Assembly: GCA_009926705.1 (NCBI GenBank)
Contig: RFOJ01000001.1
Location: 1-27,058, forward strand
From: Acidimicrobiia bacterium
Lineage (GTDB): Bacteria > Actinomycetota > Acidimicrobiia > Acidimicrobiales > Ilumatobacteraceae
DNA: 27,058 nt
Reading direction: 5' to 3'
The notes beneath the pieces are model-generated. The model searched no databases. It was given only the letters and a program-made list of their open reading frames with translations, and was not told the origin of the DNA. Shown here one piece after another: positions 1 through 26,219 of the stretch (positions are counted from its first letter, which is position 1; every line of letters begins with the position of its first letter). A program made the position numbers and the translations under genes.

Positions 1-1846
1 GGCAGTTGCCTTGGCCGTTCTCGTCGAGCTCTTCTGTCTTGCGGTGGTGGTGCTCAAACGTTTCGTCGAACGAGAGTCCACGCGTCGCCTCGGCGACCGA
101 GACCCGAAGTGAACCCATCGTGTCGACCACATCGGTGCCGTCGATGGCGAGACGAATCGGGTCGAGACCGTGCTGCTTGGCGACGGCTTCGAACATTCGT
201 TCACGCACCAGTCGGCAGGCTCCGTCGACGGCGCCGCCGCTCATCCACGTTTGTCGCGAAGCCGACGTGCTGCCTGCACTACCAATCGCCGTAGAGATTG
301 GCTCAAGCAGAACGGTGTCAACCCCAAGAACGGTCCGGGCAATCTGCTGTGCCAGAACGACGAAACCTTGTCCAACTTCGGCGGTTGCGAACTGAAGTGT
401 GGCGACGCCGTTTGCCAGGTGGCATCGAGCGGTGGCGTAGTCGTCAAAGCCTTCGGAGTACATCAAGTTCTTGATTGACACACCCCAACCGACACCGCGT
501 CGGATGTTCGACTTACGCGCCGTAAGACCCGAACCGCCGGGAATCTCGAGCGGGTCGGGGGACTCGGGCAGCGGTTCAGGCATTGGGATCGCGGCAGTTT
601 CGCGAATGCATCGTTCGACGGGCGCCACGCTCTCGACGACCTGGCCGGTGATGAGTTTGTCGCCGGTCCGCATGGCGTTCTTCAGGCGGATGTCAACCGG
701 AGAGATACCGCACGCGTCCGCGAGCTTGTCCATCTGCGACTCGTGGGCAAAGCACGCTTGCACGACGCCGAAACCGCGCATCGCGCCGCATGGCGGGTTA
801 TTCGTGCGTACGGCGTAGCCGTCGACCGTCGCGTTCTCACATTGATAGGGGCCTTGCACGTGGGTTACGGCATTGATGAGTACCGCGGAAGATGTTGAGG
901 CGTAGGCACCACCGTCGAGCACGAGTCTTGATTCAACTCGTCGCAAGGTGCCGTCTCGATCGGCATGGTGGCGCATGAAGATGGTTGCTGGATGCCGGTG
1001 AATGTGTCCGAAGAACGACTCCTCACGGCCGTACTGCATTTTGATTGGTCGTCGGGTGACGAGAGCGAGCAGACAACAATGCACCTGCAGGCTGATGTCT
1101 TCGCGGCCCCCGAATGCGCCGCCAACACCACCGAGCGTGAGACGTACCTTTTCCGGCTCGAGATTGAGGCACGCCGCAATCTGTTTTTGGTCTTCGTGTA
1201 ACCACTGCGTGGCGACGAACAGTTCGACGCCGTGTCCGTCGTCGTCGGGGAGCGCCAAGGCGGCTTCGAGACCGAGGAAGGCCTGGTCTTGCATACCGAT
1301 CTCGTACGTGCCTTCGACAACAACCTCACCGACGAGGTTCTGATCACCGCGCACGATGCGCTGGCGACGAATGACGTTTCCGTCTGGGTGGATCTTTGAC
1401 TGTGAAGGGTCAATCGCCTTCTCGGCATCAACAAGGGGAGTCAGCACTTCGTAGTCGACCTTGATGGCAGCCAAAGCACGACGGGCCGTCTCTGGATGGT
1501 CGGCGGCGACTGCGGCAACCGGTTCACCCGCGTAGCGCACGTAGTCACGCGCAAAGACCGGTTGGTCACTCGCGATGAGGCCGTACGTGAGCTTTCCTGG
1601 CACGTCATCCGCCGTGACGACCGCCGACACACCATTGATGGCGAGTGCCGCTGACGTATCGATGCGCAGGATGCGCGCGTAGGGGTGCGGGCTGCGAAGC
1701 GTTGCGCCCCACAGCATGTTGTCGGCCCAGGCATCGCTAGAAAATGCGAAACGTCCCTGCACTTTGGGAATGCCATCTGGGCGCAGGGCCGAAGTGCCAA
1801 GAGCACCCTGGCGAGTGCGAGTTGAGGTGTCGGTCTTCGTCGCCAT
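1..1846 (-). CDS. pucD: Xanthine dehydrogenase family molybdopterin-binding subunit (PucD-like), 3' end truncated by the window edge
   Basis: Absent from the ORF track because no stop falls inside the window. Manual translation of several segments from ATG 1846 stays in one frame: MATKTDT...RPDGIPKVQGRFAFSSD...LRSPHPYARI, GMQDQAFLGLE, GVGGAFGGREDISLQ, VRTNNPPCGAMRGFG, KNLMYSEGFDD, ending ...LDENGQGNC. The start sits just after the stop of the 2Fe-2S gene (TGAGATG). Confidence 0.9.
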   Translation of the reverse strand, partial: MATKTDTSTRTRQGALGTSALRPDGIPKVQGRFAFSSDAWADNMLWGATLRSPHPYARILRIDTSAALAINGVSAVVTADDVPGKLTYGLIASDQPVFARDYVRYAGEPVAAVAADHPETARRALAAIKVDYEVLTPLVDAEKAIDPSQSKIHPDGNVIRRQRIVRGDQNLVGEVVVEGTYEIGMQDQAFLGLEAALALPDDDGHGVELFVATQWLHEDQKQIAACLNLEPEKVRLTLGGVGGAFGGREDISLQVHCCLLALVTRRPIKMQYGREESFFGHIHRHPATIFMRHHADRDGTLRRVESRLVLDGGAYASTSSAVLINAVTHVQGPYQCENATVDGYAVRTNNPPCGAMRGFGVVQACFAHESQMDKLADACGISPVDIRLKNAMRTGDKLITGQVVESVAPVERCIRETAAIPMPEPLPESPDPLEIPGGSGLTARKSNIRRGVGWGVSIKNLMYSEGFDDYATARCHLANGVATLQFATAEVGQGFVVLAQQIARTVLGVDTVLLEPISTAIGSAGSTSASRQTWMSGGAVDGACRLVRERMFEAVAKQHGLDPIRLAIDGTDVVDTMGSLRVSVAEATRGLSFDETFEHHHRKTEELDENGQGNC

Positions 1847-1847
1847 C

Positions 1848-2342
1848 TCACGCACCACCCGAGATGTCTGCCGCGCGCGTATCACGCGCTTGTCGCACTG
1901 CTTCAAAGATGCGACCGTAGCCGGTGCAGCGACAGATATTGCCGCTGATGGCTTCTTTGATTTCAAGATCGCTCGGTGCTGGGTTGCGGTCGAGCAGATG
2001 GTGCACCGCGACGATGAGCCCTGGCGTACAGAAGCCGCACTGCACACCACCTGCGTTGACGAACGACTGCTGCACGTCGGTTGGCTCGCCGTCGCTCGCC
2101 AAACCTTCCACCGTGACGATGTCGGCTTCGACGGCGGTCGCCGCCATGACGAGACAGGAACAGACAGCTTCGCCGTCCATGATCACCGTGCACGACCCGC
2201 ACTCACCTTGCTCGCAGGCGCCCTTGGTGCCTGGGAGGCCGAGCCGCTCGCGCAGCACATAGAGCAGGCTTTCACCAGCCCACGCGTCCTGCACCTGGTG
2301 CTCCATGCCGTTCACGCGAAGCGTGTAGAACTCGTTGCTCAC
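1848..2342 (-). CDS. Xanthine dehydrogenase small [2Fe-2S] subunit (PucE/CoxS-like)
   Basis: Motifs GTKGACEQGECGSCTV...SC and QCGFCTPG...GNICRCTGY. The start is moved from the ORF-track 2645 to GTG 2342, which overlaps the upstream stop (GTGA); 164 aa. Confidence 0.92.
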   Translation of the reverse strand: MSNEFYTLRVNGMEHQVQDAWAGESLLYVLRERLGLPGTKGACEQGECGSCTVIMDGEAVCSCLVMAATAVEADIVTVEGLASDGEPTDVQQSFVNAGGVQCGFCTPGLIVAVHHLLDRNPAPSDLEIKEAISGNICRCTGYGRIFEAVRQARDTRAADISGGA

Positions 2343-3220
2343 TGTGGACCTCGCTTCGTTGTCGCAGTCGATTCGTAGGCGGCACGCAACAACAAGCGTT
2401 GCGCGAGCACAGAGATGGCGTGACGGCGATAGTCGGCTGTCGAACGATGGTCGTCGATTGGCGAACACTCGGCCGCAGCTCGTTGGCCGAATTCGCGAGC
2501 GAGGGTGTCGCTCACCTTCGGATTGCCGACGAGTGATGTCTGTGTCGCCAGCCAGGCTTCGGTTGCTCGTGCGCGTACCACGGTGGGGGCGACGGCTCCG
2601 AGTGCGATTCGCACCGTGCCCGCTCTCGCATCGTGCACCAAACATGCAGAAGCAGCGGAGATCACCATTGCGTTTCGAGTCCCGACCTTGGCGTAACCCT
2701 GGAAGCCCTGCACAATCGGAACACTGACGGCAACGATGAGCTCGTGCGGTTGTCTCGCGTTCCGCTTGACGCCAACCATGAAGTCGTGCACCGATACGTC
2801 GCGCGCTGCGGCACTTGAGCGGAGGTGAACGACCGCGTCGAGCGCACTGAGCACGGGCAGGCCGTCACCTGCGGGGGAGCATGTGCCGAGGTTGCCGCCA
2901 AGCGATCCAGCTGCACGTATCTGCGGTGAACCCACCGTTCGAGCCGCCTCGGCAAGTGCCGGCACGTAGTCGCGCAGCGGTGCGCGTTCCATCTCTGCAT
3001 AGGGGACTCCCGAGCCGATGCGGAGCATGCTCGTCTCGTCGTCGAGGTGCCAGCGGCGAAGCTCGGCCACGCGACGGAGCGAGACGACGTTCTCCACTTT
3101 CGTGCGATTGAAATTAACTTCGACCATCAAGTCAGTGCCGCCCTGGATGAGCCTTGCCTGCGGGTTCGCCGCCAGAGCAGAGAGCGCCTGCTCAATGCTC
3201 GTTGCGTTGACGACGGTCAT
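2339..3220 (-). CDS. Xanthine dehydrogenase FAD-binding subunit (PucC/CoxM-like)
   Basis: GGTDLMV, ARTVGSPQIRAAGSLGGNLGTCSPAGD, YAKVGTRNAMVIS and PIDDHRSTADYRRH motifs; directly upstream of the 2Fe-2S and Mo subunits. Confidence 0.92.
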   Translation of the reverse strand: MTVVNATSIEQALSALAANPQARLIQGGTDLMVEVNFNRTKVENVVSLRRVAELRRWHLDDETSMLRIGSGVPYAEMERAPLRDYVPALAEAARTVGSPQIRAAGSLGGNLGTCSPAGDGLPVLSALDAVVHLRSSAAARDVSVHDFMVGVKRNARQPHELIVAVSVPIVQGFQGYAKVGTRNAMVISAASACLVHDARAGTVRIALGAVAPTVVRARATEAWLATQTSLVGNPKVSDTLAREFGQRAAAECSPIDDHRSTADYRRHAISVLAQRLLLRAAYESTATTKRGPQ

Positions 3221-3230
3221 GCGTAGATGC

Positions 3231-4274
3231 TCACAGGACGGGTTTCCAGTCTGCGAATGCGTCGATCATTGCCCGAACGTCACCGAGCGGGTAGAGGATC
3301 GGGCAGGTCGCGCCATTGCGCATGTAGTGCGCCACTTGCTCGCGGGCGTCGGCCGGCGTTCCGCTCGCGGTGAGCATCTGCACGATCTCGTCGGGCACGT
3401 GCTTGGACGCGGCGACTACTTGTTCGTGGGTTGCCGGCCATGTGAGCACGCTGCCTACCTTGTCGAGGAGCGATTGGGGTACGCCCGATGCCTTCATGAT
3501 GTGCGGTTGTTGACCGAGATACTGCGTGACCATGAGACGAGCCATGTCGAGGGCCGTCTTGCGGTCTTCGTGCACGCTGCAGACCACGAGTTGCGGCCGG
3601 TCGATCGAATCCATCGAGCGGTTCTTCTTTGCGGCACCGGCACCCAGTGCTTCGATGGCTTTGGCGTTGTACTCAGGTGAGACGAGGTAGTTCAAGACGA
3701 CGCCATCGGCGATTTCGCCAGTGAGTTCCATCATCTGCATTCCGGTGGCACCGATGTAGATCGGCACGTCTTTTGGCCGGCGCTCTTGGTAGACGTAGTC
3801 AAGTTCAACACCGTCGAGCTTCACGAACTCGCCATTCATCGTGACGTTCTCGTTGTTCAAGAGAGCTCGCACGGCAGTGACAATCTCGCGCATGGCGCGC
3901 AAGGGCTTGGCGCGATCAATGCCGACTTTCTTGGCCAACGGATCCCACCATGCACCGATACCAAGCAGAACGCGTCCCGGCGCGAGGTCGTCCAGAGTGC
4001 TGAACGTAGCTGCGAGGCGGGCGGGGTTGCGGCTCCAGCAGTCCACGACACCCGAGCCGACCTTCAACGTCTCAGTCACCGAAGCGAACGCTGCCATTGG
4101 CACCGTTGCTTCGCGCACGAGTCGACTCTCGGCCTGCCAAACAGCTTCAAATCCGCGCTGCTCGGCATATTTTGCAAATTCCATTCCTTCGCGGATGCGA
4201 TGCGCATCCTGCAAGTAGAGCGCGACTCGGGCGGTGCCCTTCGAAGTGAACGGGGTGAAGGTGGGCGTTGTCAC
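3231..4274 (-). CDS. LLM-class oxidoreductase, Mer (methylene-H4MPT reductase)-like, probably F420-dependent
   Basis: LLM TIM-barrel motifs [57 protein letters not shown] and SGTP; by eye it follows Mer along its full length. Start GTG 4274 has GGAG upstream and overlaps the ssnA-like stop (ATGTGA); 347 aa. Confidence 0.85.
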
Positions 4275-5380
4275 ATGTTCTCCAGTCGTTGATGCAACTT
4301 TCGGGCTGCTTCGCGTGCCTTGGCGCGAGTCTCCGCTTCGTCGACGAGTAGCGAAGTGCCATGGTCGACAATCACTCGACCGCCGGCAACGACTCGCTCG
4401 ACACGCATGCCCGTAGTGAAAGCGCCGTGCCACGGCGAGTTGGCTTCGGGATAGCGCCAGGTGACGACATCGTCTCGCGACTCGGGGAATGCCTCTCGAG
4501 CGTTTTGCATCCATCCCGCGACCACGTCTGGTGTGGCAGCTAGGTCAAATTCACGCAGCCGCGCGTAAGCGAGACGTGACTCTTCGGCCATGTCGCTACC
4601 GATGCCGTCAGAACCAAGCAACACTTTGTTGGGCTTCGTGGTCGGCTTGGCATACCCGACACCGTTGTTCATGTTCGAGCGGGGGTTGTGCGCGATGCGG
4701 CCACGAAGAGGTCGATCGAGATGCACAGTGTGCACGAGCAACCAATCGTCGGCGGCGTGTTTCTCCAGCCGTGCGCCCGCAGCAACGTCGTCAATTGCTT
4801 CGGCAACGTGCACATGCACACCTACGCCATGCTTCTTGGCGAGCGCGGCCGCGGCCTCGATTGTCTCATCAGAGCACGTGAAGGCAGCATGCAAGCCGAC
4901 CATCCCGCGCTTTCCAGCACTGAGGTGACGATCGCACTCATCCAAGCCGGCCATGGCCCCCTTGGTCATGCGTGAGATCGGCGACACCTTTTCGTGCAGT
5001 GATCCGTCGTCAGCCCAGCGGTCGGTGGCCCCGTAGCAAGCATTCACGCGCACACCGACTTCGCTGCAGGCCTTGTCGATTGCTTCGAGCGAGCCTTCGA
5101 TTGCTCGCGGTGACTCGTGATGGTCGATGATGCACGTCGTGCCAGCGAGCGCAGCCTCGAGGGCGCCGAGCTTGGCTGACCAGTAAATAGTTTCGAGATC
5201 GAGGGCTGCATCGAGCCGCCACCACACAAGCGAGAGCATGTCGGGGAAGTTTCTCGGACTCCGACTTGGACCAGGCATGCCGCGCGCAAGAGCCGAATAG
5301 AGGTGATGGTGCGCGTTGACGAGCCCAGGTGTAGTGCTCAGCACCGGTGAGGATGCGGCACTGGCAGTGGTGGCGGTCAT
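4271..5380 (-). CDS. ssnA: SsnA-like metal-dependent amidohydrolase, N-terminally shortened
   Basis: [65 protein letters not shown] and [10 protein letters not shown] parallel E. coli SsnA as recalled (HNHFYSGLSRG, WWRLDRALD, HNARSNMNNHVGY, LGTDGIGSDM). Start ATG 5380; 369 aa. Confidence 0.82.
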
Positions 5381-5390
5381 CGTGATCGGA

Positions 5391-8000
5391 TCAGTCTTCT
5401 TCGGAGTTGCCGCGACGCATTGGTAGGTGGGTGCGCCACACGCCGTCGAGTTCGTGCAGAGCCTTTGCGACCGCGCCAGCAGTCGGCACAAGCCCGATTT
5501 CGCCGACACCCTTGATGCCGTACGGCGCATTCGGTTGCGGCGATTCGACGAGCATCACCTTCATCGGCGGTACGTCCTTGGCGCGCAAGATGCCGAGTGA
5601 GCGAAGCGTCATATTGGTGGGGAAGCCCGTCTCCGGATCGGCGGGAAAGTCTTCTGACAAGGCGTAGCCGAGACCCATGTGAATGCTGCCCTCTATTTGC
5701 CCTTCACACAGCGTGGGGTTCACGGCACGGCCGACGTCGTGTGCTGCAACAACGCGCTCGATTTTGCCCGTCTCACGATCAATCACCACCAATTGGGTGG
5801 CGTAACCGAATGTCGAGTGGATGATTGGGTTGGTTACCCCAGGATCGCCCAACTTGGTCGTCCAGTCGACGCGGTATTCACCGACATGGTCGATACCGCG
5901 GGTGAGACCTGCTTCGAGTGCTGTTCGGCAAGCGTCTTGCACCGCTCCAGCACCCATGAGCGTGCCGCGCGAGCCGGTTGTCTGACCCAGTCCAAGTTCC
6001 CTGGTCGTGTCAACGACCACTCGCACACGACGCTCGTCGTCGTCGATGGCGAGATGTTGACCGAGTTCTTCGATTGCCACTTGCATCGCCACGGTGTTGA
6101 TGCCTTGGCCCATCTCCGTCCAGCCGTGGCGCACTTCGAGCGAGCCGTCGTCTTCGATTCGCACGACTGCCCGCGTGACTTCTTTGAAGCCGTTACCGAG
6201 CCCGCTGTTCTTCAATCCGAGACCGAGACCGACTGCCTTTCCGGCTTTCTTCGCCTCGTCGTAATGCGGTTTGATCGCTTCGAGACAAGCGAGTGCACCG
6301 TTGCAACCGTCGTCCATCAACTGACCAGGGCCCCACACCATGCCTGGTTGGATGACGTTGCGTCGGCGAATCTCCCACGAGTCGATACCAGCAAGTTCGG
6401 CAAGGCGGTCGAGCATGCCTTCCATCGCGAACTGTGCCTGGTTGGCGCCGAAACCGCGGAATGCGCCACCGACTGGGTTGTTGGTACGAACGGCGATGGA
6501 TTCGACGTCGATGGAAGGCAAGTGGTACGGCCCGCTCGCATGGCCGGCCATTCGTTCGAGCACCTTCATGCCGACACTGGCGTACGCGCCCGAATCGCCC
6601 ACGGCACGCACGCGCAGGGCAGTGAGCTTTCCGTTTTCGTCACAGCCCATCTCATAACTCATGCGAATCGGATGCCGCTTGGCATGCATGAGGAGGCTTT
6701 CTTCACGCGACAAGACGCACTTGACGGGAGCGTCGAGCAACCACGCCGCAAGCGAAGCGTGAGCTTGGTTCGACATGTCTTCTTTTCCACCGAACGCACC
6801 GCCGTTGGTGATGAGTTCGACCGTCACGCGGTCGTTGGCAAGACCGAGCACTCGGGCGATGTCGTTGCGGTCGTCCCACACACCTTGACCGCCGGAGTAC
6901 ACATGTAGGCGTCGCGTCTCACCGCTCCCGGAGGGCACGGCGAGCGTTGCTTCAGGTTCCAGGAATGCATGCTCAATTCGTTGCGTCTGGAAGGTTTCTC
7001 GCACGACGTGCTTGCTGGAAGCGAGTGCAGCATCGACATCACCACGCTGATACGTGCTGGTGCTGAGCACATTGTCTTTGGTCTGCCATACGGCAACTTC
7101 GCTGGTGGAAAGAGCGACGTCGACGTCGGTGATCGGCGTGTGCACCTCGTAGTCAACCTCGACAAGCCCAGCCGCCGCCCTCGCTTGTGCGCGCGACTCG
7201 GCGACCACGATGGCGAGCACATCACCGGCATACGACGTGCGGCCGCCGACTGGAATCATGACCGGCCAGTCTTTGTAAATGATGCCGACCATCAACTCGC
7301 CCGGGATGTCAGACGCTGTGTAGACGGCACGAACGCCCTCCGCCGCTCGTGCGGCGTCGGTGCGAATGGCCTTGATACCCGCCCGAGCGTGCGCAGTGAG
7401 ATGCAGTGCGGCATGCAGCATGCCGGGCACGCGCATGTCGTCGATGTATCCGCGGTCACCGAGAGCGAGCGCTTCAGCTTCGTGCTTTACAGTTCGCGAG
7501 CCGACTCCGCCGGCCGCGGCGAGTGGAGGTATTTCATTCTTTGCGACGCATTCGATCGCGTCGAGAATTTTTGCGTAACCCGTGCAACGACACAAGTGGG
7601 CTCCAAGGTGGCGGGCCATGTCTTCTCGCTTGAGGGCTGCACCCTTCTTGTCGATCTGCGCCTTGGCGCGAACGACGATGCCGGGGATACAAAAGCCACA
7701 TTGCAGACCCCCGCATGCTGCGAACGCCTGCGAGAACTTGGCGCGCTCTTCTTCGGAAACTCCCTCGAGTGTTGTGATCTGCGCGCCTGACGCTTTCTCA
7801 AGGCTCGTCTGGCACGAGACGACTGCCTTTCCGTTCACCAGAACGGTGCAACATCCGCACTGACCAGAAGGTGAGCAGCCATCTTTCGGAGATGTGATGT
7901 TCAGTTCTTCGCGCAATGCCGACAACAGATGCGGATGCGGTTGCCGAACGACGACGGGTACGCCGTTCACGACGAACTCAGTGGCTGCCCCCGCGCTCAC
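5391..8000 (-). CDS. Fused [2Fe-2S] + molybdopterin-binding hydroxylase, selenium-dependent xanthine dehydrogenase type
   Basis: N-terminal KDGCSPSGQCGCCTV and QCGFCIPG...HLCRCTGY. Mo-domain motifs TQRIEHAFLEPE, GGAFGGKED, GGAFRGFG, GMGQG, TTGSRG, AAHDVGRAVNP..CEGQIEG and KGVGE (catalytic Glu). The 869-aa fused layout and the LKNSGLG motif match clostridial Se-dependent Xdh as recalled. GTG start. Confidence 0.85.
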   Translation of the reverse strand: MSAGAATEFVVNGVPVVVRQPHPHLLSALREELNITSPKDGCSPSGQCGCCTVLVNGKAVVSCQTSLEKASGAQITTLEGVSEEERAKFSQAFAACGGLQCGFCIPGIVVRAKAQIDKKGAALKREDMARHLGAHLCRCTGYAKILDAIECVAKNEIPPLAAAGGVGSRTVKHEAEALALGDRGYIDDMRVPGMLHAALHLTAHARAGIKAIRTDAARAAEGVRAVYTASDIPGELMVGIIYKDWPVMIPVGGRTSYAGDVLAIVVAESRAQARAAAGLVEVDYEVHTPITDVDVALSTSEVAVWQTKDNVLSTSTYQRGDVDAALASSKHVVRETFQTQRIEHAFLEPEATLAVPSGSGETRRLHVYSGGQGVWDDRNDIARVLGLANDRVTVELITNGGAFGGKEDMSNQAHASLAAWLLDAPVKCVLSREESLLMHAKRHPIRMSYEMGCDENGKLTALRVRAVGDSGAYASVGMKVLERMAGHASGPYHLPSIDVESIAVRTNNPVGGAFRGFGANQAQFAMEGMLDRLAELAGIDSWEIRRRNVIQPGMVWGPGQLMDDGCNGALACLEAIKPHYDEAKKAGKAVGLGLGLKNSGLGNGFKEVTRAVVRIEDDGSLEVRHGWTEMGQGINTVAMQVAIEELGQHLAIDDDERRVRVVVDTTRELGLGQTTGSRGTLMGAGAVQDACRTALEAGLTRGIDHVGEYRVDWTTKLGDPGVTNPIIHSTFGYATQLVVIDRETGKIERVVAAHDVGRAVNPTLCEGQIEGSIHMGLGYALSEDFPADPETGFPTNMTLRSLGILRAKDVPPMKVMLVESPQPNAPYGIKGVGEIGLVPTAGAVAKALHELDGVWRTHLPMRRGNSEED

Positions 8001-8018
8001 CTTTACAGTTTGTCAAAG
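8001..8018. promoter_or_regulatory. Imperfect palindrome CTTTACA-GTT-TGTCAAAG abutting the xdh start; contains a candidate -10 (TGA-CAAACT, 6 nt before GTG)
   Basis: Arms 8001-8007 and 8011-8018 are complementary with one bulge; an AT-rich island in GC-rich DNA. Function inferred. Confidence 0.4.
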
Positions 8019-8048
8019 GCTGGGGGACCTGCCAATCCACCCCCAGCC
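8018..8048 (-). terminator. GC hairpin GGCTGGGGG/CCCCCAGCC followed by TTTG on the minus strand; possible terminator
   Basis: Perfect 9-bp stem (8018-8026 with 8040-8048), 13-nt loop, short U tract; lies between the carbamoylase pair and the xdh operon. Confidence 0.45.
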
Positions 8049-8156
8049 ATCGATACGTCGAGGGTTCTGGCGACCCCGGAGCCAGGCGGACGGGGGTTTC
8101 AGAAGGCCCCAGCCCCAGAGCGGGGCGGGCCCCCGTGGCGCGCGGTAAGGCCGGCC

Positions 8157-9119
8157 CTAGAGCGGGCTGCCGTCGGCGCGGGTGTTGGCCCCGCGCTGGG
8201 TGGTGAGCCGGCGATACACCTCGGGTCGTCGGTAGTAATCCAGATCGAACAGGGTGTTCTGGTAGTTCTTGCACCACTCGAGGTCGCATTCAGCGACCAC
8301 AACTTCGTCGCCCGCACTCACCGTCTTAGCGAGGATTTCCCCAGACGGGGCGATGATCTGCGATTCAGCAAGCGAGTCAACGCCTTCTTCGACACCACCC
8401 TTGGCGACACCGACGACGAACGTGCCGTTCTGATACGCGCCCGACTGCATGACGAGCGAATTGTGGAATCCGGCGTGGCGATCCTGGCTCGGGTCGGGGA
8501 TGTAGTTGAGCGGCGTGTTGTAGCCGCAGAGAATGAGTTCGACGCCTTGCAAGCCCATCTCGCGGTACGTCTCAGGCCATCGGCGATCGTTGCAGATCAT
8601 CATGCCGATGCGACCGCCGAACGCGTTCCACACACCGAATCCCTCATCGCTTGGTTCGAAGTAGTAGCGCTCAGCATGTTGGAAAGGGCGATTGGGTTCG
8701 TTTGACGCGTGACCCGGAATGTGCACCTTGCGGTACTTGGCGACGATGGCGCCGTCGCGCTCGACCAGCACTTGCGTGTTAAAGCGGTGTCCGTCAGCAG
8801 TGAGCTCGGCGTATCCGAGACTGAAGCCCACCTTGCGCTGCTTGGCTGCATCGAACAGCGGCTGGGTGGCAGGGGACGGCATTGAGGTTTCGTAGTAGTG
8901 GTCGGCGGTCGCGATGTCGTCGACGAACCACCGCGGGAAGAACGTCGTCAATGCAAGTTCCGGAAACACGACGAGCTGGGCACTTTGGTCGGCTGCTCGA
9001 TGCAACAGTGCGACGAGACGAGCGACCGCCGATTCTCGGCTGTCGGTTCGTTGGATCGGCCCCATCTGTGCAGCAGCGACGCGCACGACTCGAGGCGTTC
9101 CGCGCAATGCGCCTTTCAT
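8157..9119 (-). CDS. N-carbamoyl-D-amino acid hydrolase (DCase-like, nitrilase superfamily)
   Basis: VFPELALTTFFPRW (Glu), YRKVHIPGH (Lys), ICNDRRWPE (Cys), RPFQH..RYFEP and MQSGAYQNG closely match Agrobacterium-type DCase as recalled; GAGG RBS upstream. Confidence 0.9.
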   Translation of the reverse strand: MKGALRGTPRVVRVAAAQMGPIQRTDSRESAVARLVALLHRAADQSAQLVVFPELALTTFFPRWFVDDIATADHYYETSMPSPATQPLFDAAKQRKVGFSLGYAELTADGHRFNTQVLVERDGAIVAKYRKVHIPGHASNEPNRPFQHAERYYFEPSDEGFGVWNAFGGRIGMMICNDRRWPETYREMGLQGVELILCGYNTPLNYIPDPSQDRHAGFHNSLVMQSGAYQNGTFVVGVAKGGVEEGVDSLAESQIIAPSGEILAKTVSAGDEVVVAECDLEWCKNYQNTLFDLDYYRRPEVYRRLTTQRGANTRADGSPL

Positions 9120-9159
9120 GACGCCTCACCACAAGGAAGTGCGAAGGTTGTCGACAACA

Positions 9160-10407
9160 TCACGAGAACGACATTTCTGCAAGCTCTCGCATCGTGTCAA
9201 GTAGCACGTCTGCGCCAGCGACGAGATCTGCTTCATCAGTGTGTTCGGCCACGTTGTGGCTGAGACCCTTGTGACTCGGTACGAAGATCATCGCCGTCGG
9301 GCACATGCGGGCGATCATCTGAGCATCGTGACCCGCACCGGAGGGCATTCGCTGCACGGTGTTGCCTCGTGCTGCTGCGAGACGCTCAACCATCGAAACA
9401 ACACGTTCGTCGAACACGACGGGCTCGAAGCGGGCGAGGCTACGACGCGTGATAGCGACATTCTCGCGCTCGGCAAGTTCGCTGCAGAAGGCGTCGATCT
9501 CGGCCTCCGCTCGCTGCAAGACGAGCTCGTCGGTGTTCCGCACGTCGAGCGTGAGCACCGCCCGGCTCGGCACGACGTTGGTGAGATTCGGATGCAAGTC
9601 GACCTTTCCGACGGTGCAGACCTGATGCCCGCCGAAACGTCCGGCGAGTTCGCGTACGAAGACGGTGAGAGCAGCCGCGGCGTACGCCGGATCGCGCCGC
9701 AGGTGCATCGGGGTGGTGCCGGCGTGGTTGCTCTGGCCTTGGATAGTGACTTCTTGCCATGAGATGCCCTGAACGCCGGTGACGGCACCGATTCGCACGC
9801 CGTTGACTTCGAGGAGCGGACCCTGTTCGATGTGCAACTCGACGAACGCGTGGGGTGCAGCACCAGGGCAGGGCATTGCCCCCAGGTATCCAATTCGTTC
9901 GAGCTCGTCCCCGAGACGTGCACCGTCGATCGCGATGACGTCATGAGCTTCTTCGACCGACATGCCACCCGCGTACACCAGAGAGCCGAGCATGTCGGGA
10001 GCGAATCGTGCGCCTTCTTCGTCGGTGAAGACGCCGACTGCGAGCGGGCGCGAGGGCTCAATCCCGGCATCTTGCATCGTCTCGATGACTTCGAGGCCAG
10101 CCAACACGCCGTAGTTGCCGTCGTACTTGCCTCCGGTGCGAACCGTGTCGATGTGCGATCCGGTCATGACTGGCGCACCGCTGCCGACATTCCAGGTGCC
10201 GATCATGTTGCCGACGGCATCGACGGTGACGACGAGCCCGAGGTCGACCATCCACGAACGAACGAGGTCGCGACCATCTCGGTCAGCGTCGGTGAGTGCC
10301 AGTCGGTTGCATCCACCACCGTCGATGGCACCGACCTCGGCCAGCGCCATGATGCGCTGCATCAGTCGCACACCGTTGACGGAGAGCGCTTGGGTCGTCG
10401 AGCGCAC
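9160..10407 (-). CDS. M20 Zn-dependent N-carbamoyl-L-amino acid amidohydrolase / beta-ureidopropionase / allantoate amidohydrolase family
   Basis: GSHIDTV..GGKYDGNYGV, FTDEEGARF, ELHIEQGP, NHAGTTPM and SGAGHDAQ motifs; GTG start preceded by TAGAAT plus 6 nt. Confidence 0.92.
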   Translation of the reverse strand: MRSTTQALSVNGVRLMQRIMALAEVGAIDGGGCNRLALTDADRDGRDLVRSWMVDLGLVVTVDAVGNMIGTWNVGSGAPVMTGSHIDTVRTGGKYDGNYGVLAGLEVIETMQDAGIEPSRPLAVGVFTDEEGARFAPDMLGSLVYAGGMSVEEAHDVIAIDGARLGDELERIGYLGAMPCPGAAPHAFVELHIEQGPLLEVNGVRIGAVTGVQGISWQEVTIQGQSNHAGTTPMHLRRDPAYAAAALTVFVRELAGRFGGHQVCTVGKVDLHPNLTNVVPSRAVLTLDVRNTDELVLQRAEAEIDAFCSELAERENVAITRRSLARFEPVVFDERVVSMVERLAAARGNTVQRMPSGAGHDAQMIARMCPTAMIFVPSHKGLSHNVAEHTDEADLVAGADVLLDTMRELAEMSFS

Positions 10408-10413
10408 GGAGAC

Positions 10414-10419
10414 ATTCTA
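10414..10419 (-). promoter_or_regulatory. -10 element TAGAAT, leaderless start of the M20 gene
   Basis: TANNNT 6 nt upstream of GTG 10407; no SD sequence. Confidence 0.6.
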
Positions 10420-10441
10420 CGAATGGCAGTATTGAACCTTG

Positions 10442-11791
10442 ATGCGTCACGTTGACCGAGCTCGATTGGCCGAGCTGATGAAGAGCGAGACGCAACGCTT
10501 CGTCGACACCCACCCGAAATCTGCAGCGCATGCGCAGACTGCCGGCGCGCTCGTCGGTGGCGTACCGATGCCGTGGATGCGCCGTTGGCCCGGACCGTTC
10601 CCACTCGTTCTCGAGCAAGCCAGCGGGGCACGGTTCACCGATATCGACGGTCACGAATACGTCGACCTCTGCCTCGGCGATACGGGCGCAATGACGGGTC
10701 ACGCACACCGCGAGGTCGGCGAAGCGGTGAGTCGCCAGCTCTCACGCGGTGCGACCGTGATGCTTCCGACGCAGGATGCCGTGTGGGTCGCCAACGAGAT
10801 GCAGCGGCGCTTCAGTCTTCCAAAGTGGCAGTTTGCGCTGAGCGCCACGGATGCGAATCGTTTCGTGTTGCGATTCGCGCGCGCCATCACTGGCAAGCCA
10901 AAGGTGCTCGTGCACGACTGGTGCTACCACGGCACCGTCGACGAGACCCTCGTCGTTGCCCTCGGTGACCGGACGATTAGTCGCAGCGGCGCAATCGGTC
11001 CGCAGGTGAACCCAGCGTTGACCACCCGCGTGGTGCAGTTCAACGACGTTGAGGGCATCGAGCACGCGCTTGCACACGGTGACGTCGCCTGCATGCTCAT
11101 CGAACCTGCACTCACGAACATTGGCATTGTGCTTCCTGAGCCCGGCTACCTGGCGGCCGTTCGCGAAATCACCCGCAAGCATGGCGTGTTGCTCATTATC
11201 GACGAGACGCACACGATCTGCGCCGGCCCGGGCGGATGTACGAAGGAGTGGGGTTTGGAACCCGACATGTTCGTCATTGGCAAGACCATCGGCGGGGGAA
11301 TCCCCGTCGGGGCCTACGGCATGTCGGCCGAAGTCGGAGAAAAGGTCGAGCAACTGCAATTGAGCGATGGCATCGATGTGTCAGGAGTTGGCGGCACACT
11401 GGCCGGTAACGCACTCTCGATGGCGGCTGTGCGAGCGACACTCACTCACGCACTGCTGCCCGAACAGTTCGTGCGTACCAAGGCTCTCGCAACAGCGTGG
11501 ACCGCCGGCGTGAAAGACGCGTACGAGCGACGCGACTTGGCATGGAGCGTCCAACAACTCGGGTCGCGAGCCGAGTACTGGTTCTGCCCACCGCCGCGCA
11601 CCGGTGCCGACGCAGCCGCTGCCGTCGACCACGACCTTGACGCATTCATGCACTTGTGGGCGATCAACCGCGGCGTGCTGCTCACACCGTTTCACAACAT
11701 GGCGCTCTTCTCGCCGTTCCACGATCAGTCCGACGTCGACCGTCACACTGAGCAGTTCGATGCCGCCCTCACGGCGCTCGTCGGCGCCTGA
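10442..11791 (+). CDS. Class III PLP-dependent aminotransferase (GSA-aminomutase-like fold, probably not HemL)
   Basis: ASGARFTDIDGHEYVD, CYHGTVDE, LLIIDETHT and PDMFVIGKTIGGGIPVGAYG (PLP Lys), GGTLAGN. Start ATG 10442 or TTG 10439. Confidence 0.88.
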   Translation: MRHVDRARLAELMKSETQRFVDTHPKSAAHAQTAGALVGGVPMPWMRRWPGPFPLVLEQASGARFTDIDGHEYVDLCLGDTGAMTGHAHREVGEAVSRQLSRGATVMLPTQDAVWVANEMQRRFSLPKWQFALSATDANRFVLRFARAITGKPKVLVHDWCYHGTVDETLVVALGDRTISRSGAIGPQVNPALTTRVVQFNDVEGIEHALAHGDVACMLIEPALTNIGIVLPEPGYLAAVREITRKHGVLLIIDETHTICAGPGGCTKEWGLEPDMFVIGKTIGGGIPVGAYGMSAEVGEKVEQLQLSDGIDVSGVGGTLAGNALSMAAVRATLTHALLPEQFVRTKALATAWTAGVKDAYERRDLAWSVQQLGSRAEYWFCPPPRTGADAAAAVDHDLDAFMHLWAINRGVLLTPFHNMALFSPFHDQSDVDRHTEQFDAALTALVGA

Positions 11792-11794
11792 GCG

Positions 11795-12526
11795 ATGACC
11801 ACACCCCAGATCATTTGGTGCCTGTCTGTCTTCGCGGCGGCCGCATTCGTGCAGTCGATCGGCGGATTCGGATTCTCGCTGTTCGCCGTGCCGCTGATGG
11901 CACTGTCGATTCCTCTGCCTGAGGCCGTAGTTGCTGGGAGCATCGCCGCATTCGCCAACGTCGTGGTCTTGTCGGCTCGTTCATTGCGCGACGTGGAGTG
12001 GACGGTTGCGCGACGATTCAACCTTCCCGCGCTGGTTGGCATGCCGCTCGGCCTGCTCGTGCTCGTGAGAGTCGATGAATCGGTGTTGAAGGTAGCTCTC
12101 GGTGCGGTCATCATCGTGCTCATCGTGGTGCTGATACGAACGACATCAGCAACACGACCGCGGCCTGTCGTTGAAGTGGTCGCAGGGCTCGCGTCCGGCG
12201 TGCTCGCGACGTCGACTTCCACCAACGGACCACCACTGGTGTTCGCAGCCCAACTGCGCGGCTTGCCGCCAGAAACATTCCGCGCGACGCTCAGTTTCAG
12301 CTTTGCCCTACAAGGGGCGATCAGTCTCGTTGCATTCTTTGCTGCGGGTGAAGCGACACAAGGAGCAGTGTTGCTCGCTCTTGGAGGACTGCCGCTCATT
12401 GCAGCCGGACAGTGGCTCGGCATTCGCACGCGTCCTCGCGTGCACGGCAAGCGCTTCGACCGCATGGTGTACGGACTGCTCGCGCTCAGCGCGGTGTCGG
12501 TGTCGTGGTCGGGGTTCTTCGGCTAG
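11795..12526 (+). CDS. TauE/SafE (TSUP) family permease
   Basis: About 8 hydrophobic segments; QSIGGFGFSL, GMPLG, STSTNGPPLV and FRATL motifs; 3 nt after the aminotransferase. Confidence 0.85.
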   Translation: MTTPQIIWCLSVFAAAAFVQSIGGFGFSLFAVPLMALSIPLPEAVVAGSIAAFANVVVLSARSLRDVEWTVARRFNLPALVGMPLGLLVLVRVDESVLKVALGAVIIVLIVVLIRTTSATRPRPVVEVVAGLASGVLATSTSTNGPPLVFAAQLRGLPPETFRATLSFSFALQGAISLVAFFAAGEATQGAVLLALGGLPLIAAGQWLGIRTRPRVHGKRFDRMVYGLLALSAVSVSWSGFFG

Positions 12527-12554
12527 TCAGGTCTTCTGGCCACCAGTAGTGCGA

Positions 12555-13268
12555 CTACCGCGCAAACCAGCCAAGCCACGCTTCTTTTGACTTCGGCTTG
12601 AACACGGCGTTGCTCGAGCGCACACGCTGCATCGGCGCAAACGGTTCGTGTGAGTACATGTGACCGGGGAAGATGACCGTCTCATCGGGGAGCGATGCCA
12701 GGCGCTGCAAGCTGTCGTACATGTCTTCGGGGTCACTGCCGGGCAGGTCCGTTCGGCCGCAGCCGTCCAAGAACAAGGTGTCACCTGAGACCAATCTTCC
12801 GTCAACGAGAAAACACTGGCTGCCGGGGGTGTGCCCTGGCGTGTGCACGAGCGTGATCGCGATGTCTCCGACCGTGACGATGTCGCCAGGTTCATGAGCG
12901 GCAATCTGCTGCTTTTCGACTCCGGTGACCTTGGAGATCCACTCCACTTCGGCTCGCTGCGCATGGATGGGTACCGATGCCCGTTCGAGGAGACGTTCGA
13001 TTCCCTCAATGCGCATGCCCATCATTGAGCCGCCGACGTGATCAGGGTGATAGTGCGTCGCAAGCACGCCCGTCAATCGCATGCCGTCGGCTTCAATGGT
13101 GTCGATGAGCGAGTCCACGTCGTATGCCGGGTCGACGAGCACACAGTCGCCGGTCTGCCGGTCACCGATCGCATAGACGAAGTTCACCATCTGCTGCGCC
13201 ATCTGGTCGTCTCGAGCAAAGTCTCGGCCAGACAGCAACTGGCGGAAGTAAAAGCGGTCGACTGTCAC
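12555..13268 (-). CDS. MBL-fold metallo-hydrolase, glyoxalase II-like (Rv0634c-like)
   Basis: THYHPDH (HxHxDH), HTPGHTPGS, SGDTLF, GCGRTDLPG and FPGH; N-terminus FYFRQLLSGRDFA as recalled for mycobacterial Rv0634c. GTG 13268 preferred (TAGGTT 7 nt upstream); GTG 13274 is the alternative. Confidence 0.88.
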   Translation of the reverse strand: MTVDRFYFRQLLSGRDFARDDQMAQQMVNFVYAIGDRQTGDCVLVDPAYDVDSLIDTIEADGMRLTGVLATHYHPDHVGGSMMGMRIEGIERLLERASVPIHAQRAEVEWISKVTGVEKQQIAAHEPGDIVTVGDIAITLVHTPGHTPGSQCFLVDGRLVSGDTLFLDGCGRTDLPGSDPEDMYDSLQRLASLPDETVIFPGHMYSHEPFAPMQRVRSSNAVFKPKSKEAWLGWFAR

Positions 13269-13275
13269 TGGCACG

Positions 13276-13285
13276 AACCTACCCT
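13276..13285. promoter_or_regulatory. Overlapping divergent -10 elements: TAGGTT (minus, 13276-13281) and TACCCT (plus, 13280-13285)
   Basis: Each lies 6-7 nt from a start codon (GTG 13268, ATG 13292); the gap is only 23 bp and has no SD. Confidence 0.6.
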
Positions 13286-13291
13286 TGAATC

Positions 13292-14410: not shown

Positions 14411-14414
14411 CGCG

Positions 14415-26181: not shown

Positions 26182-26187
26182 GACGAG

Positions 26188-26213
26188 ACAATAGTTCTGC
26201 CGCTGCCTAGCGT
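26188..26213. promoter_or_regulatory. Divergent -10 pair: TATTGT (minus, 26188-26193) and TAGCGT (plus, 26208-26213)
   Basis: Each lies exactly 6 nt from a GTG start (26181 and 26220). Confidence 0.6.
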
Positions 26214-26219
26214 GATGCC

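Follow-up and report, generated by a model that had tools for sequence, protein, structure and literature searches.

The reductive route of uric-acid degradation was solved in gut anaerobes in 2025. The E. coli reference cluster reads ygeW-ygeX-ygeY-hyuA-yqeA ... ygfK-ssnA-ygfM-xdhD (Li et al., 2025, bioRxiv 10.1101/2025.04.24.650524), and the ring is reduced by YgfK in E. coli and by UacX in C. difficile. For Chloroflexota, a PF00296 protein encoded beside SsnA was predicted to replace YgfK/UacX and proposed as the 2,8-dioxopurine reductase, a prediction limited to that phylum and drawn from an SSN of IPR017700 members (Li et al., 2025). The window analysed here, 27,058 nucleotides long, spans the whole of contig C1 in a MAG (64% complete) of a freshwater member of the Ilumatobacteraceae (Acidimicrobiia), an aerobic, planktonic actinobacterium. 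We consider it fairly probable that the operon of this bacterium specifies a variant of the reductive uric-acid (2,8-dioxopurine) pathway that depends on coenzyme F420 and apparently does without selenium. We infer the substrates, activities and order of steps from the gene content and synteny of the locus, the families to which its proteins belong, the complementary distributions of the genes and their presence in RNA libraries. A sequence-only reading of this DNA had taken the locus for a re-tooled 2,8-dioxopurine cluster, which the SsnA clade, the XdhF architecture and intermediate actinobacterial clusters support. It had also called the system undescribed. The F420 swap had already been predicted in print for Chloroflexota, so the operon is a new variant and the pathway itself is not new. 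The likeness to the Chloroflexota prediction is one of idea rather than of established orthology.

All the genes named in that reading were found with Pfam and NCBIfam: the minus strand encodes an M20 carbamoylase, a D-carbamoylase (DCase), XdhF, an SsnA-like amidohydrolase, a Mer-like luciferase-like oxidoreductase (LLM) and a three-subunit PucCDE-type xanthine dehydrogenase (XDH), and a class III aminotransferase is divergent. The apparently actinobacterial origin was also borne out by the placement of the genome. As in the E. coli cluster, a FAD-less fused FeS/Mo hydroxylase adjoins an SsnA-clade amidohydrolase coupled to a ring reductase, the two ureido groups are matched by a pair of enzymes, and an ordinary XDH lies nearby; the two cluster types are linked gene by gene through intermediate actinobacterial clusters. 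Unlike in E. coli, the reductase belongs to the F420-class LLMs and is neither YgfK nor the UacX of C. difficile, SsnA is short, YgeW+YqeA and YgeY are swapped for a nitrilase-fold D-carbamoylase and a carbamoylase-type M20 enzyme, the HyuA role is unlinked, and YgeX was not found. The host also differs from the gut anaerobes in its aerobic freshwater life.

Start and stop codons had been described as coupled along the gene run. This stood for the SsnA/LLM and FAD/FeS pairs, which overlap by GTGA, and for the FeS/Mo pair, with a gap of 1 nt; the XdhF/SsnA and LLM/FAD gaps are 10 nt and the M20/DCase gap 40 nt, but 156 nt separate DCase from XdhF, and coupling is therefore uneven along the run. 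Several lineages have a shuffled gene order with the genes still clustered (L115, L123, L125, L127-129, L132-133). Contigs from four river/aquatic metatranscriptomes, at least 95% identical, covered every operon gene and bridged five gene junctions, although contigs from RNA libraries may include DNA.

The first step, from hypoxanthine/xanthine to urate, would be catalyzed by the PucCDE-type XDH. Its PucD-type Mo-binding subunit (2..1846, minus strand; TIGR03196 pucD, 651 bits over 612 of 763 positions) starts at ATG 1846, just past the FeS stop, and is truncated where the contig stops, which leaves 615 of about 760 aa; the complete orthologue of a relative (L004) scores 830 bits against a cut-off of 784. 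The 2Fe-2S subunit (PucE/XdhC type, 164 aa; 1848..2342, minus strand; Pfam Fer2_2 and Fer2; pucE, 160 bits) starts at GTG 2342, overlapping the stop of the FAD subunit (XdhB type, 293 aa; 2339..3220, minus strand; Pfam FAD_binding_5 and CO_deh_flav_C; XdhB, 180 bits). The three-subunit XDH, and possibly XdhF too, may rely on this FAD subunit.

XdhF (869 aa; 5391..8000, minus strand) is a fused 2x[2Fe-2S] and molybdopterin hydroxylase without a FAD domain. It matches TIGR03311 over its full length (positions 2-842 of 848) with 826.6 bits, 4 bits short of the cut-off (830.45), which its orthologues from YgeW/YgeY-type clusters exceed (940 bits). Its Mo domains start at residue 307, matching the reported C. 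sporogenes DOPDH. On this TIGR03311/DOPDH architecture we propose that XdhF is a putative urate/2,8-dioxopurine dehydrogenase, which would strip the C6 oxygen of urate to give 2,8-dioxopurine, as DOPDH does. XdhF retains the classical XDH Glu/Arg/Glu motifs, where E. coli XdhD has Gln/Gln/Glu, and the position of Glu606, an E. coli residue that has been proposed to orient urate, lies within a gap-rich loop of the alignment, so the regiospecificity of XdhF cannot be read from sequence. The C. sporogenes DOPDH and XDH require SelD. Neither SelD nor YqeB or YqeC was found in three near-complete operon carriers, G062 (100% complete), G419 (same genus, 95%) and G402 (96%), which removes the ground for calling this Xdh "Se-type"; the operon's pathway apparently works without selenium, and its chemistry may therefore differ.

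The XDH-like active site, together with the missing selenium trait, common to all known 2,8-dioxopurine clusters, would also fit a reading that we think unlikely, in which the same logic serves another oxidised N-heterocycle (xanthine itself, 6,8-dioxopurine, 8-oxoguanine-derived bases, pteridines or methylxanthines): the LLM would reduce it, SsnA would open it and the carbamoylases would finish. The urate-supplying PucD-type XDH encoded alongside argues against this.

The short SsnA (369 aa; 4271..5380, minus strand), whose real start is ATG 5380, matches SsnA (NF005540) with 231 bits, the next family reaching 91 bits. The match covers positions 58-349 of the 444-position model and stays below the cut-off (444 bits) because the protein is a naturally short form, without the N-terminal ~55 residues of the beta-sandwich domain of E. 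coli SsnA, to whose residues 54-439 it is 33% identical. Such forms make up a conserved family of 355-375 aa, of which 24 fell into a single clade (SH-aLRT 100), sister to full-length actinobacterial SsnA and nested in a clade with E. coli SsnA (SH-aLRT 97), separate from the GuaD-like amidohydrolases; GuaD itself adjoins many of the compared clusters. With 222 bits against an IPR017700-family threshold of 455, the short SsnA probably lies outside the network of Li et al. (2025). The metal ligands (HxH, H189/H191/E194, H217 and D258) are invariant, and the AF2 model (pLDDT 94.4) shows a TIM barrel of the nucleobase-deaminase type (TM 0.81). Translationally coupled to the LLM, this enzyme would open the pyrimidine ring of the reduced product to give ureidomethyl-hydantoin. 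Its position in a separate clade on a long branch, its remodelled beta-sandwich and structural neighbours that are deaminases of several distinct bases would suit another heterocycle as well, but in other classes (L052-L054) the short SsnA and the LLM adjoin HyuA, YgeX and YgeW, which favours 2,8-dioxopurine.

The Mer-like LLM (347 aa; 3231..4274, minus strand; Pfam Bac_luciferase) has F420 classes as its top NCBIfam matches, each below its own cut-off, and no curated F420 LLM family fits. Its closest solved structures, of the same fold, are all F420 enzymes, namely, Mer (1z69, 4e-36), Fgd1 and F420 hydroxymycolate dehydrogenase. Unlike known F420 LLMs, it forms its own orthogroup, tied to SsnA and XdhF and tightly conserved (alignment columns 76% identical on average across phylum-level relatives), with orthologues 60-95% identical that adjoin SsnA/XdhF across Actinomycetota. 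Hydride transfer from F420H2 to a heterocycle C=N or C=C is established chemistry of this class. The LLM would reduce the ring with F420H2 regenerated from NADPH by Fno; each of 41 genomes gave a CofD hit and each of 5, the window's own included, a hit to Fno.

The distribution of the LLM suggests that it takes the place of YgfK, as the sequence-only reading had supposed. Among 80 SsnA loci, 75 have the LLM, 4 a short YgfK and none both, although the loci are mutually related and were gathered with LLM or SsnA as query, so that these and the following locus counts are not independent events. In some Acidimicrobiia (G091, G133, G147 and G160), a short YgfK, which matches positions 5-397 of TIGR03315 and adds a 4Fe-4S dicluster, stands directly after the short SsnA, in the LLM slot. 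The 41 family genomes hold short SsnA in 38, LLM in 34 and short YgfK in 5; the one with both has a divergent LLM copy on a separate contig. Where an LLM locus lacked SsnA, the latter was elsewhere in the genome (5/5 cases). In other Actinomycetota families (L055-L062), an LLM orthologue (60-70% identical) is clustered with full-length SsnA, YgeW, YgeY, YgeX, HyuA, YqeA and GuaD, and none of these clusters has YgfK. No YgfK, YgeW, YgeY or YgeX scored above cut-off in G000, G062, G419 and G402. We propose the LLM as a candidate 2,8-dioxopurine reductase replacing YgfK, the swap predicted for Chloroflexota (Li et al., 2025). Both the in situ replacement by a short YgfK, whose E. coli homologue works on 2,8-dioxopurine, and the clustering of LLM and XdhF orthologues with the full YgeW, YgeY, YgeX, HyuA and YqeA set speak against another heterocycle.

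The two ureido groups of 2,3-diureidopropionate would be removed by the two carbamoylases. The DCase (nitrilase fold, CN-hydrolase, 320 aa; 8157..9119, minus strand), an N-carbamoyl-D-amino-acid hydrolase, is a close homologue of hydantoinase-process enzymes (1e-96 to 1e-112), such as those of Nitratireductor (8I99, 1e-112) and Agrobacterium (1FO6, 7e-96; 1ERZ), and conserves the catalytic Glu, Lys and Cys motifs of the solved structures. As in that process, it would follow a D-specific hydantoinase on an N-carbamoyl-D-alpha-amino acid, and 2,3-diureidopropionate is such a compound; unlike there, this DCase lies within a purine operon with no adjoining hydantoinase or racemase. It would cut the 2-ureido group in place of YgeW+YqeA or UacY. 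For the M20 enzyme (415 aa; 9160..10407, minus strand; TIGR01879, hydantoinase/carbamoylase family, 398 bits, cut-off 204), of the L-carbamoylase/N-carbamoyl-beta-alanine amidohydrolase type, we propose cleavage of the 3-ureido group, the YgeY role. Twin carbamoylases had been suggested to fill the YgeW/YgeY place, and this agrees with the survey: DCase/M20 occur in 51 loci and YgeW/YgeY in 9, never together, DCase being present only where YgeW/YgeY are absent. LLM, SsnA and XdhF travel together, and at the surveyed loci both replacements are mutually exclusive with the proteins they would replace. The M20 enzyme passes the "allantoate amidohydrolase" cut-off of NF006771 (420 against 399), as it would in a classical oxidative ureide route (XDH to urate, allantoin and allantoate) with the other genes as accessories. 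This reading is close to refuted: the protein is nearer to L-carbamoylase/N-carbamoyl-beta-alanine amidohydrolase structures (8apz, 8c46 and 3n5f, 1e-84 to 1e-90) than to AllC (allantoate amidohydrolase 1z2l, 1e-62), SsnA, LLM, XdhF and DCase are left without a role, and uricase, HIU hydrolase and OHCU decarboxylase were found in none of five genomes (the window's own and four near-complete relatives).

It had been suggested that a hydantoinase may lie beyond the left edge, which is the contig end. In five relatives the Mo subunit is the last gene of the operon and the next gene is a DEAD helicase on the opposite strand, which contradicts this. The search of the parent genome did yield a dihydropyrimidinase/D-hydantoinase, on contig C3 and unlinked to the operon, which would convert the hydantoin to 2,3-diureidopropionate. 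The enzyme is nearly universal in the family (35/41 genomes) and lies in an apparent pyrimidine (Pyd-like) cluster with its own F420 LLM (TIGR03842; 24% identical to the operon LLM), so its role in the pathway is an assumption. That cluster has no beta-ureidopropionase, and the window's carbamoylases may therefore serve pyrimidines too. The hydrolase/reductase half could even be a reductive pyrimidine or D-hydantoin module, an F420 analogue of PydA-PydB-PydC or of the hydantoinase/D-carbamoylase process, merely sharing an operon with two xanthine-dehydrogenase-family enzymes. SsnA is indeed akin to PydB-type cyclic amidohydrolases, DCase and beta-ureidopropionase-type M20 enzymes are classical dihydropyrimidinase/hydantoinase partners, and the divergent aminotransferase is of the kind used for beta-alanine. 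We nevertheless regard this as quite unlikely, given that the amidohydrolase belongs to the SsnA and not the dihydropyrimidinase clade, that the genome has a true dihydropyrimidinase with a different F420 LLM elsewhere, that the XdhF-LLM adjacency is the most conserved feature, even in loci without any nearby hydrolase (L092, L099, L104), and that the alternative occupant of the LLM slot is YgfK, not PydA.

The proposed F420 variant would end in 2,3-diaminopropionate, CO2 and NH3. No DAP ammonia-lyase was found for it, and the divergent aminotransferase (GSA-aminomutase-like, class III, 450 aa; 10439..11791, plus strand; PRK07046, 633 bits, cut-off 425) is a mere candidate for the fate of diaminopropionate. 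Among solved structures, 5ykr ("probable aminotransferase") is closest to it, and GSA aminomutases and beta-transaminases come next. The suggestion that a transaminase stands in for DpaL proved weak: the gene neighbours the operon only in loci of the Ilumatobacteraceae type, whose flanks are collinear in any case, and is missing from some of these (L080, L086), though no locus has both it and a YgeX-like gene (19 vs 12 loci). Its link to the pathway is uncertain. The TauE/SafE-family permease coupled to it (11795..12526, plus strand; Pfam TauE) is probably outside the pathway. Almost no metatranscriptome coverage was seen for this permease, in contrast to the operon. In G147, a nucleoside ABC transporter of the PnrA/Bmp type comes after the cluster.

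Starting from hypoxanthine, the two oxidations of the proposed F420-dependent pathway balance its two reductions, which would account for the presence of both hydroxylases and the reductase in a single operon.

The window takes up the entire contig C1 of a 1.17-Mb metagenome-assembled genome (MAG) of 275 contigs that is 64% complete (G000). Searches with Pfam and NCBIfam bore out the minus-strand gene run that the sequence-only reading had proposed: an M20 hydantoinase/carbamoylase-family amidase (10407-9160), a nitrilase-fold CN-hydrolase (DCase, 9119-8157), a fused 2Fe-2S and molybdopterin hydroxylase (XdhF, 8000-5391), an SsnA-like amidohydrolase (5380-4271), a Mer-like luciferase-like oxidoreductase (LLM, 4274-3231), and a PucCDE-type xanthine dehydrogenase (XDH) in three subunits, FAD (3220-2339), 2Fe-2S (2342-1848) and Mo (1846-2, truncated where the contig stops). 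A class III aminotransferase coupled to a TauE permease gene diverges from this run on the plus strand (10439-11791). The start and stop codons from XdhF to the Mo subunit are tightly coupled, either overlapping as GTGA or lying 1 or 10 nt apart, and 40 nt separate M20 from DCase and 156 nt DCase from XdhF. The latter spacer (8001-8156) is the sole sizeable gap of the operon, measures 53 to 152 nt in relatives and could accommodate a regulatory site or internal promoter. No Rfam family for a riboswitch or other RNA reached threshold in the window, this gap included.

The nearest proteins come from MAGs labeled Ilumatobacteraceae, Acidimicrobiaceae or acIV, so the host, earlier described as apparently actinobacterial, was placed correctly. 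Relatives of the operon also occur in Microthrixaceae, Iamia, the sponge-associated Poriferisodalis and marine Acidimicrobiales. Several MAG records titled "Bifidobacterium" (loci L064, L071, L084, L085 and L094) carry the Acidimicrobiia operon with an LLM identity of 83 to 95%, and these titles are probably taxonomic mislabels. Between 65 and 90% of the sampled words of the window were present in lake, pond, river and freshwater metagenomes, and a heme A synthase gene near its right end fits aerobic respiration. A single open reading frame of the window (25102-26286) encodes a TetR regulator (TetR_N and TetR_C_6) fused to a SnoaL/DUF4440-like NTF2 domain. Four river or aquatic metatranscriptome libraries, independent of one another, gave contigs of at least 95% identity that cover all the operon genes and the aminotransferase, leave the TauE gene nearly uncovered, and bridge the Mo/FeS/FAD, FAD/LLM, LLM/SsnA, SsnA/XdhF and DCase/M20 junctions; such libraries may contain contaminating DNA, and assembled contigs do not prove one single transcript. 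The operon is real and conserved, and it is probably expressed.

We infer all enzyme functions from sequence, and the operon is best read as a variant of the known reductive urate pathway. That it serves the classical oxidative ureide route instead is unlikely, since neither G000 nor four near-complete relatives yielded a uricase, HIU hydrolase or OHCU decarboxylase. In the reductive urate reading, the LLM would take the place of the reductase YgfK. Every top match in NCBIfam and PDB is an F420 enzyme (Mer 1z69, 4e-36; Fgd1; F420 hydroxymycolate dehydrogenase), and it passes the cut-off of no curated NCBIfam family. The cofactor appears to be available in the host: CofD is present in all 41 genomes of the family sample, and the search for an F420H2 source found no Fgd above cut-off but NADPH:F420 oxidoreductase (Fno) in 5/5 genomes, including G000. 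With a predicted TIM barrel closest to F420 users and an F420-producing host, the protein is a likely F420-dependent LLM. Its orthogroup has a mean column identity of 76% over phylum-level relatives. The species-representative genome collection contains at least 575 of its loci, the best 80 of which are all from Acidimicrobiia.

We mapped the window proteins and the Escherichia coli K-12 yge/ygf proteins onto 100 fetched neighborhoods. Genome G120, flagged as unpublished, contributed to one tally and underlies none of the claims. Clusters in other families of Actinomycetota (f14, f27 and f42) connect the canonical pathway to the window operon gene by gene: an LLM orthologue, 60 to 70% identical, clusters there with XdhF, full-length SsnA, YgeW, YgeY, YgeX, HyuA, YqeA and GuaD, without YgfK. 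Three genomes from other classes (G109, G371 and G268) have short SsnA and LLM adjoining HyuA, accompanied by YgeX in G109 and G371 and by YgeW in G109. In four Acidimicrobiia genomes (G091, G133, G147 and G160), the gene directly after short SsnA is not LLM but a short YgfK, which matches positions 5 to 397 of TIGR03315 and a 4Fe-4S dicluster. Among 80 SsnA loci, 75 had LLM, 4 short YgfK, none both and 1 neither, counts that describe a pattern rather than independent events because the compared loci are interrelated and were gathered with LLM or SsnA as query. In the 41-genome family sample, short SsnA was found in 38, LLM in 34 and short YgfK in 5. The sole family genome with both reductases, G403, has YgfK adjoining SsnA and a divergent LLM copy on a different contig. 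The genomes G000, G062 and G419 yielded no YgfK, and LLM fills the slot there. Such alternation in situ among close relatives is a classical signature of functional equivalence. The proposal that LLM stands in for YgfK thus withstood the neighborhood survey for mutual exclusion, and on these comparisons LLM is the best-supported candidate for a nonorthologous replacement in the operon.

Some LLM loci have XdhF but no SsnA, which was then found elsewhere in the genome in 5/5 cases. In L092, L099 and L104, for example (at about 7400-11000 in each), LLM follows XdhF directly and there is no SsnA or hydrolase within 10 kb, an arrangement seen in several Ilumatobacteraceae genomes. Of all the adjacencies, that of XdhF and LLM persists most. 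In G147, a PnrA/Bmp-type (purine nucleoside) ABC transporter follows the short-YgfK cluster (L046, 965-6134).

The SsnA-like gene has its true start at ATG 5380, 10 nt past the XdhF stop, and encodes 369 residues; the protein is one of a large conserved family of 355 to 375 residues. It is 33% identical by BLAST to residues 54 to 439 of E. coli SsnA. In a maximum-likelihood tree, the 24 short SsnAs formed one clade (SH-aLRT 100) that was sister to full-length actinobacterial SsnAs and nested within the clade of E. coli SsnA (SH-aLRT 97), with GuaD-like and other amidohydrolases falling outside. The alignment showed that the short proteins are devoid of about 55 N-terminal residues and of two C-terminal inserts of the beta-sandwich domain, while the metal ligands (HxH, His/His/Glu, His and Asp) are invariant. 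The N-terminal truncation explains why the HMM score (231 bits) is under the cut-off of 444. A confident AlphaFold model (pLDDT 94.4, pTM 0.92) superposed on nucleobase-deaminase-type amidohydrolases with a TM score of 0.81 by query and 0.67 by target, the lower value being expected from the trimmed small domain. Tree, alignment and model together identify the window protein as a shortened SsnA, whose tree position and metal ligands match the ring-opening amidohydrolase of reductive urate clusters.

The ureido groups would be handled differently from the reference pathway, in which the D-specific HyuA acts first and YgeW or the D-aminoacylase-like UacY is then assigned the 2-ureido cleavage (Li et al., bioRxiv 10.1101/2025.04.24.650524). 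Instead of YgeW (with YqeA) or UacY and YgeY, the operon has DCase and a carbamoylase-type M20 protein; TIGR03316 and TIGR03526 gave only weak paralogue matches in G000, G062, G419 and G402. DCase matches characterized N-carbamoyl-D-amino-acid hydrolases at 1e-96 to 1e-112 (8i99, 1e-112), with the catalytic Glu/Lys/Cys and the FPEL, YRK and ICNDRRW motifs aligned, and would perform the 2-ureido cleavage assigned to YgeW or UacY. The nearest structures to M20 are an L-carbamoylase and an N-carbamoyl-beta-alanine amidohydrolase, ahead of allantoate amidohydrolase, and M20 would take over 3-(beta-)ureido cleavage, the task of YgeY. Among the SsnA loci, DCase and/or M20 occurred in 51 and YgeW and/or YgeY in 9, with no locus combining the two sets, in agreement with the earlier suggestion that two carbamoylases replace YgeW and YgeY. 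One genome (G390:C1:292264-294695) encodes, separate from its DCase/M20 operon, a YgeW-like protein that scores 328 bits (cut-off 500) and, next to it, a YgeY-like protein (164 bits).

It had been suggested that a hydantoinase may lie past the left edge of the window. This can be rejected, because five relatives with an SsnA 61 to 87% identical show the operon ending there, with a Mo subunit of 756 to 760 residues followed by an opposite-strand DEAD helicase. Searching the parent genome revealed a TIGR02033 member (547 bits, cut-off 393) on another contig, C3. This dihydropyrimidinase/D-hydantoinase is 40% identical to E. coli HyuA and present in 35/41 family genomes; its use in the urate route is an assumption, since it sits in a pyrimidine-looking cluster. 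That Pyd-like cluster (L010, 273-10196) encodes the dihydropyrimidinase, an aldehyde dehydrogenase, a second F420-class LLM, an NMT1-type ABC transporter and an opposite-strand class III aminotransferase, with neither PydA nor a beta-ureidopropionase visible in it. The second LLM was rejected as a paralogue of the window LLM, being 24% identical to it and a member of TIGR03842 (the "CPS_4043" family, 593 bits). The C3 cluster may represent a reductive pyrimidine route that depends on F420 and makes use of the carbamoylases of the window. It is also possible that the window operon is itself a pyrimidine or hydantoin module, or that it acts on a different purine-like substrate.

Under the reductive urate reading, the operon would provide two hydroxylases. 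The three-subunit enzyme is classified by sequence as a PucD-type XDH, the full-length Mo subunit of a close relative scoring 830 bits (cut-off 784). XdhF resembles the Clostridium sporogenes DOPDH in its FAD-less FeS and Mo architecture: the Mo domains of DOPDH are given as residues 307 to 839, and the MoCoBD_1 domain of XdhF starts at residue 307 (Pfam). It appears to be a DOPDH/XdhD-type hydroxylase encoded with SsnA, 10 nt upstream of it. The active-site motifs differ, XdhF having the classical XDH Glu/Arg/Glu and E. coli XdhD Gln/Gln/Glu; the column of XdhD Glu606, a position proposed by Li et al. (bioRxiv 10.1101/2025.04.24.650524) and consulted here for the regiospecificity of XdhF, falls in a gappy loop of the XdhF/XdhD alignment.

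SelD and YqeBC are reported from all cluster-bearing strains, and both clostridial hydroxylases are reported to need SelD (Liu et al.). The set of SelD, YqeB and YqeC that marks the selenium-cofactor trait did not characterize our family sample. YqeB exceeded its cut-off in just 3/41 genomes, two with short YgfK (G403 and G420) and one with LLM (G431), and YqeC was found in 0/5 genomes. SelD was missing from 10/41, among them G062, G419, G402, G407, G408 and G264, which carry LLM; G062 is 100% complete in two contigs and has the full operon (L044), and G419, of the window's genus, is 95% complete. XdhF itself scores 826.6 bits against the 830.45 cut-off of TIGR03311, "selenium-dependent xanthine dehydrogenase," with YqeB and YqeC not found in operon-bearing relatives, and its orthologues in YgeW/YgeY-type clusters pass with 940 bits. 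The earlier "Se-type" label thus had to be dropped, as SelD, YqeB and YqeC were not found in operon-bearing relatives, and gene content suggests that the operon version is probably selenium-free. Loci of marine Acidimicrobiales and Microthrixaceae (L125 and L133, both at about 11000-17000, and L134) have YqeB, YqeC and a hydroxylase resembling XdhD (36% identity to the E. coli protein) beside an F420-type cluster, together with a distant, long-branched SsnA-like amidohydrolase. The extra genes are possibly a second, selenium-dependent hydroxylase system.

The 2,3-diaminopropionate ammonia-lyase YgeX (TIGR01747) had no match in 36/41 family genomes, including G000, G419 and G062. The other five have YgeX-like matches of 217 to 262 bits (cut-off 274), two of them directly beside LLM. 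A transaminase had been proposed to replace this lyase (DpaL). The aminotransferase is PRK07046/GSA-aminomutase-like, and its nearest structure, 5YKR, is an uncharacterized "probable aminotransferase" on which a literature search found nothing. Diaminopropionate is conceivable as its substrate, given that the reaction of GSA aminomutases proceeds through a vicinal diamine. The proposal gains from the fact that the aminotransferase (19 loci) and the YgeX-like gene (12 loci) never co-occur, although this exclusion could reflect a single evolutionary event. It loses from the genomic context: the aminotransferase adjoins the operon in no loci other than those of Ilumatobacteraceae type, in which collinearity extends to the flanking housekeeping genes, and some of these (L080 and L086) do not have it. 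Across such loci, genes for an MBL-fold hydrolase, a GFO/IDH/MocA oxidoreductase and a DAO-type FAD oxidoreductase (12555-15857 in the window) are conserved beside aminotransferase-TauE, possibly as a small unit of their own.

It was not until 2025 that the reductive urate pathway was solved. Gut anaerobes are presented as its bearers and selenium as a requirement, and a survey that used clostridial BLAST queries describes it as enriched among host-associated microbiomes (Liu et al.). Such surveys would miss the operon, because at most 3/7 query proteins (XdhAC, SsnA and HyuA) have a homologue. The F420 swap is already predicted in print (Li et al., bioRxiv 10.1101/2025.04.24.650524), and none of the papers that full-text searching turned up took the idea further or named Acidimicrobiia. 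The searchable literature does not describe the putative exchange of carbamoylases, the truncation of SsnA, the apparent lack of a need for selenium or an aerobic aquatic host.

The alternation of LLM and short YgfK in one slot among close relatives offers a natural experiment by which the reductase step could be assigned, and the pathway is a candidate first physiological role for an uncharacterized F420 LLM orthogroup. The enzymes are also candidate oxygen-tolerant, selenium-independent parts for engineering urate-lowering strains. The near-ubiquity of the operon in the sampled Ilumatobacteraceae genomes, with its relatives in other groups, suggests an F420-driven, probably selenium-free version of the pathway in oxic lakes, rivers and seas. 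A fuller scenario, which we regard as rather doubtful when all its parts are taken jointly, is that abundant Acidimicrobiia of fresh and marine waters, respiring oxygen, run the "anaerobic" reductive urate route without selenium, the LLM with F420H2 being the purine-ring reductase, XDH and XdhF redox-balancing the conversion of hypoxanthine to ureidomethyl-hydantoin, and the GSA-aminomutase-like aminotransferase disposing of 2,3-diaminopropionate instead of an ammonia-lyase. If this were true, purines would supply nitrogen in oxic surface waters without the need for a uricase.
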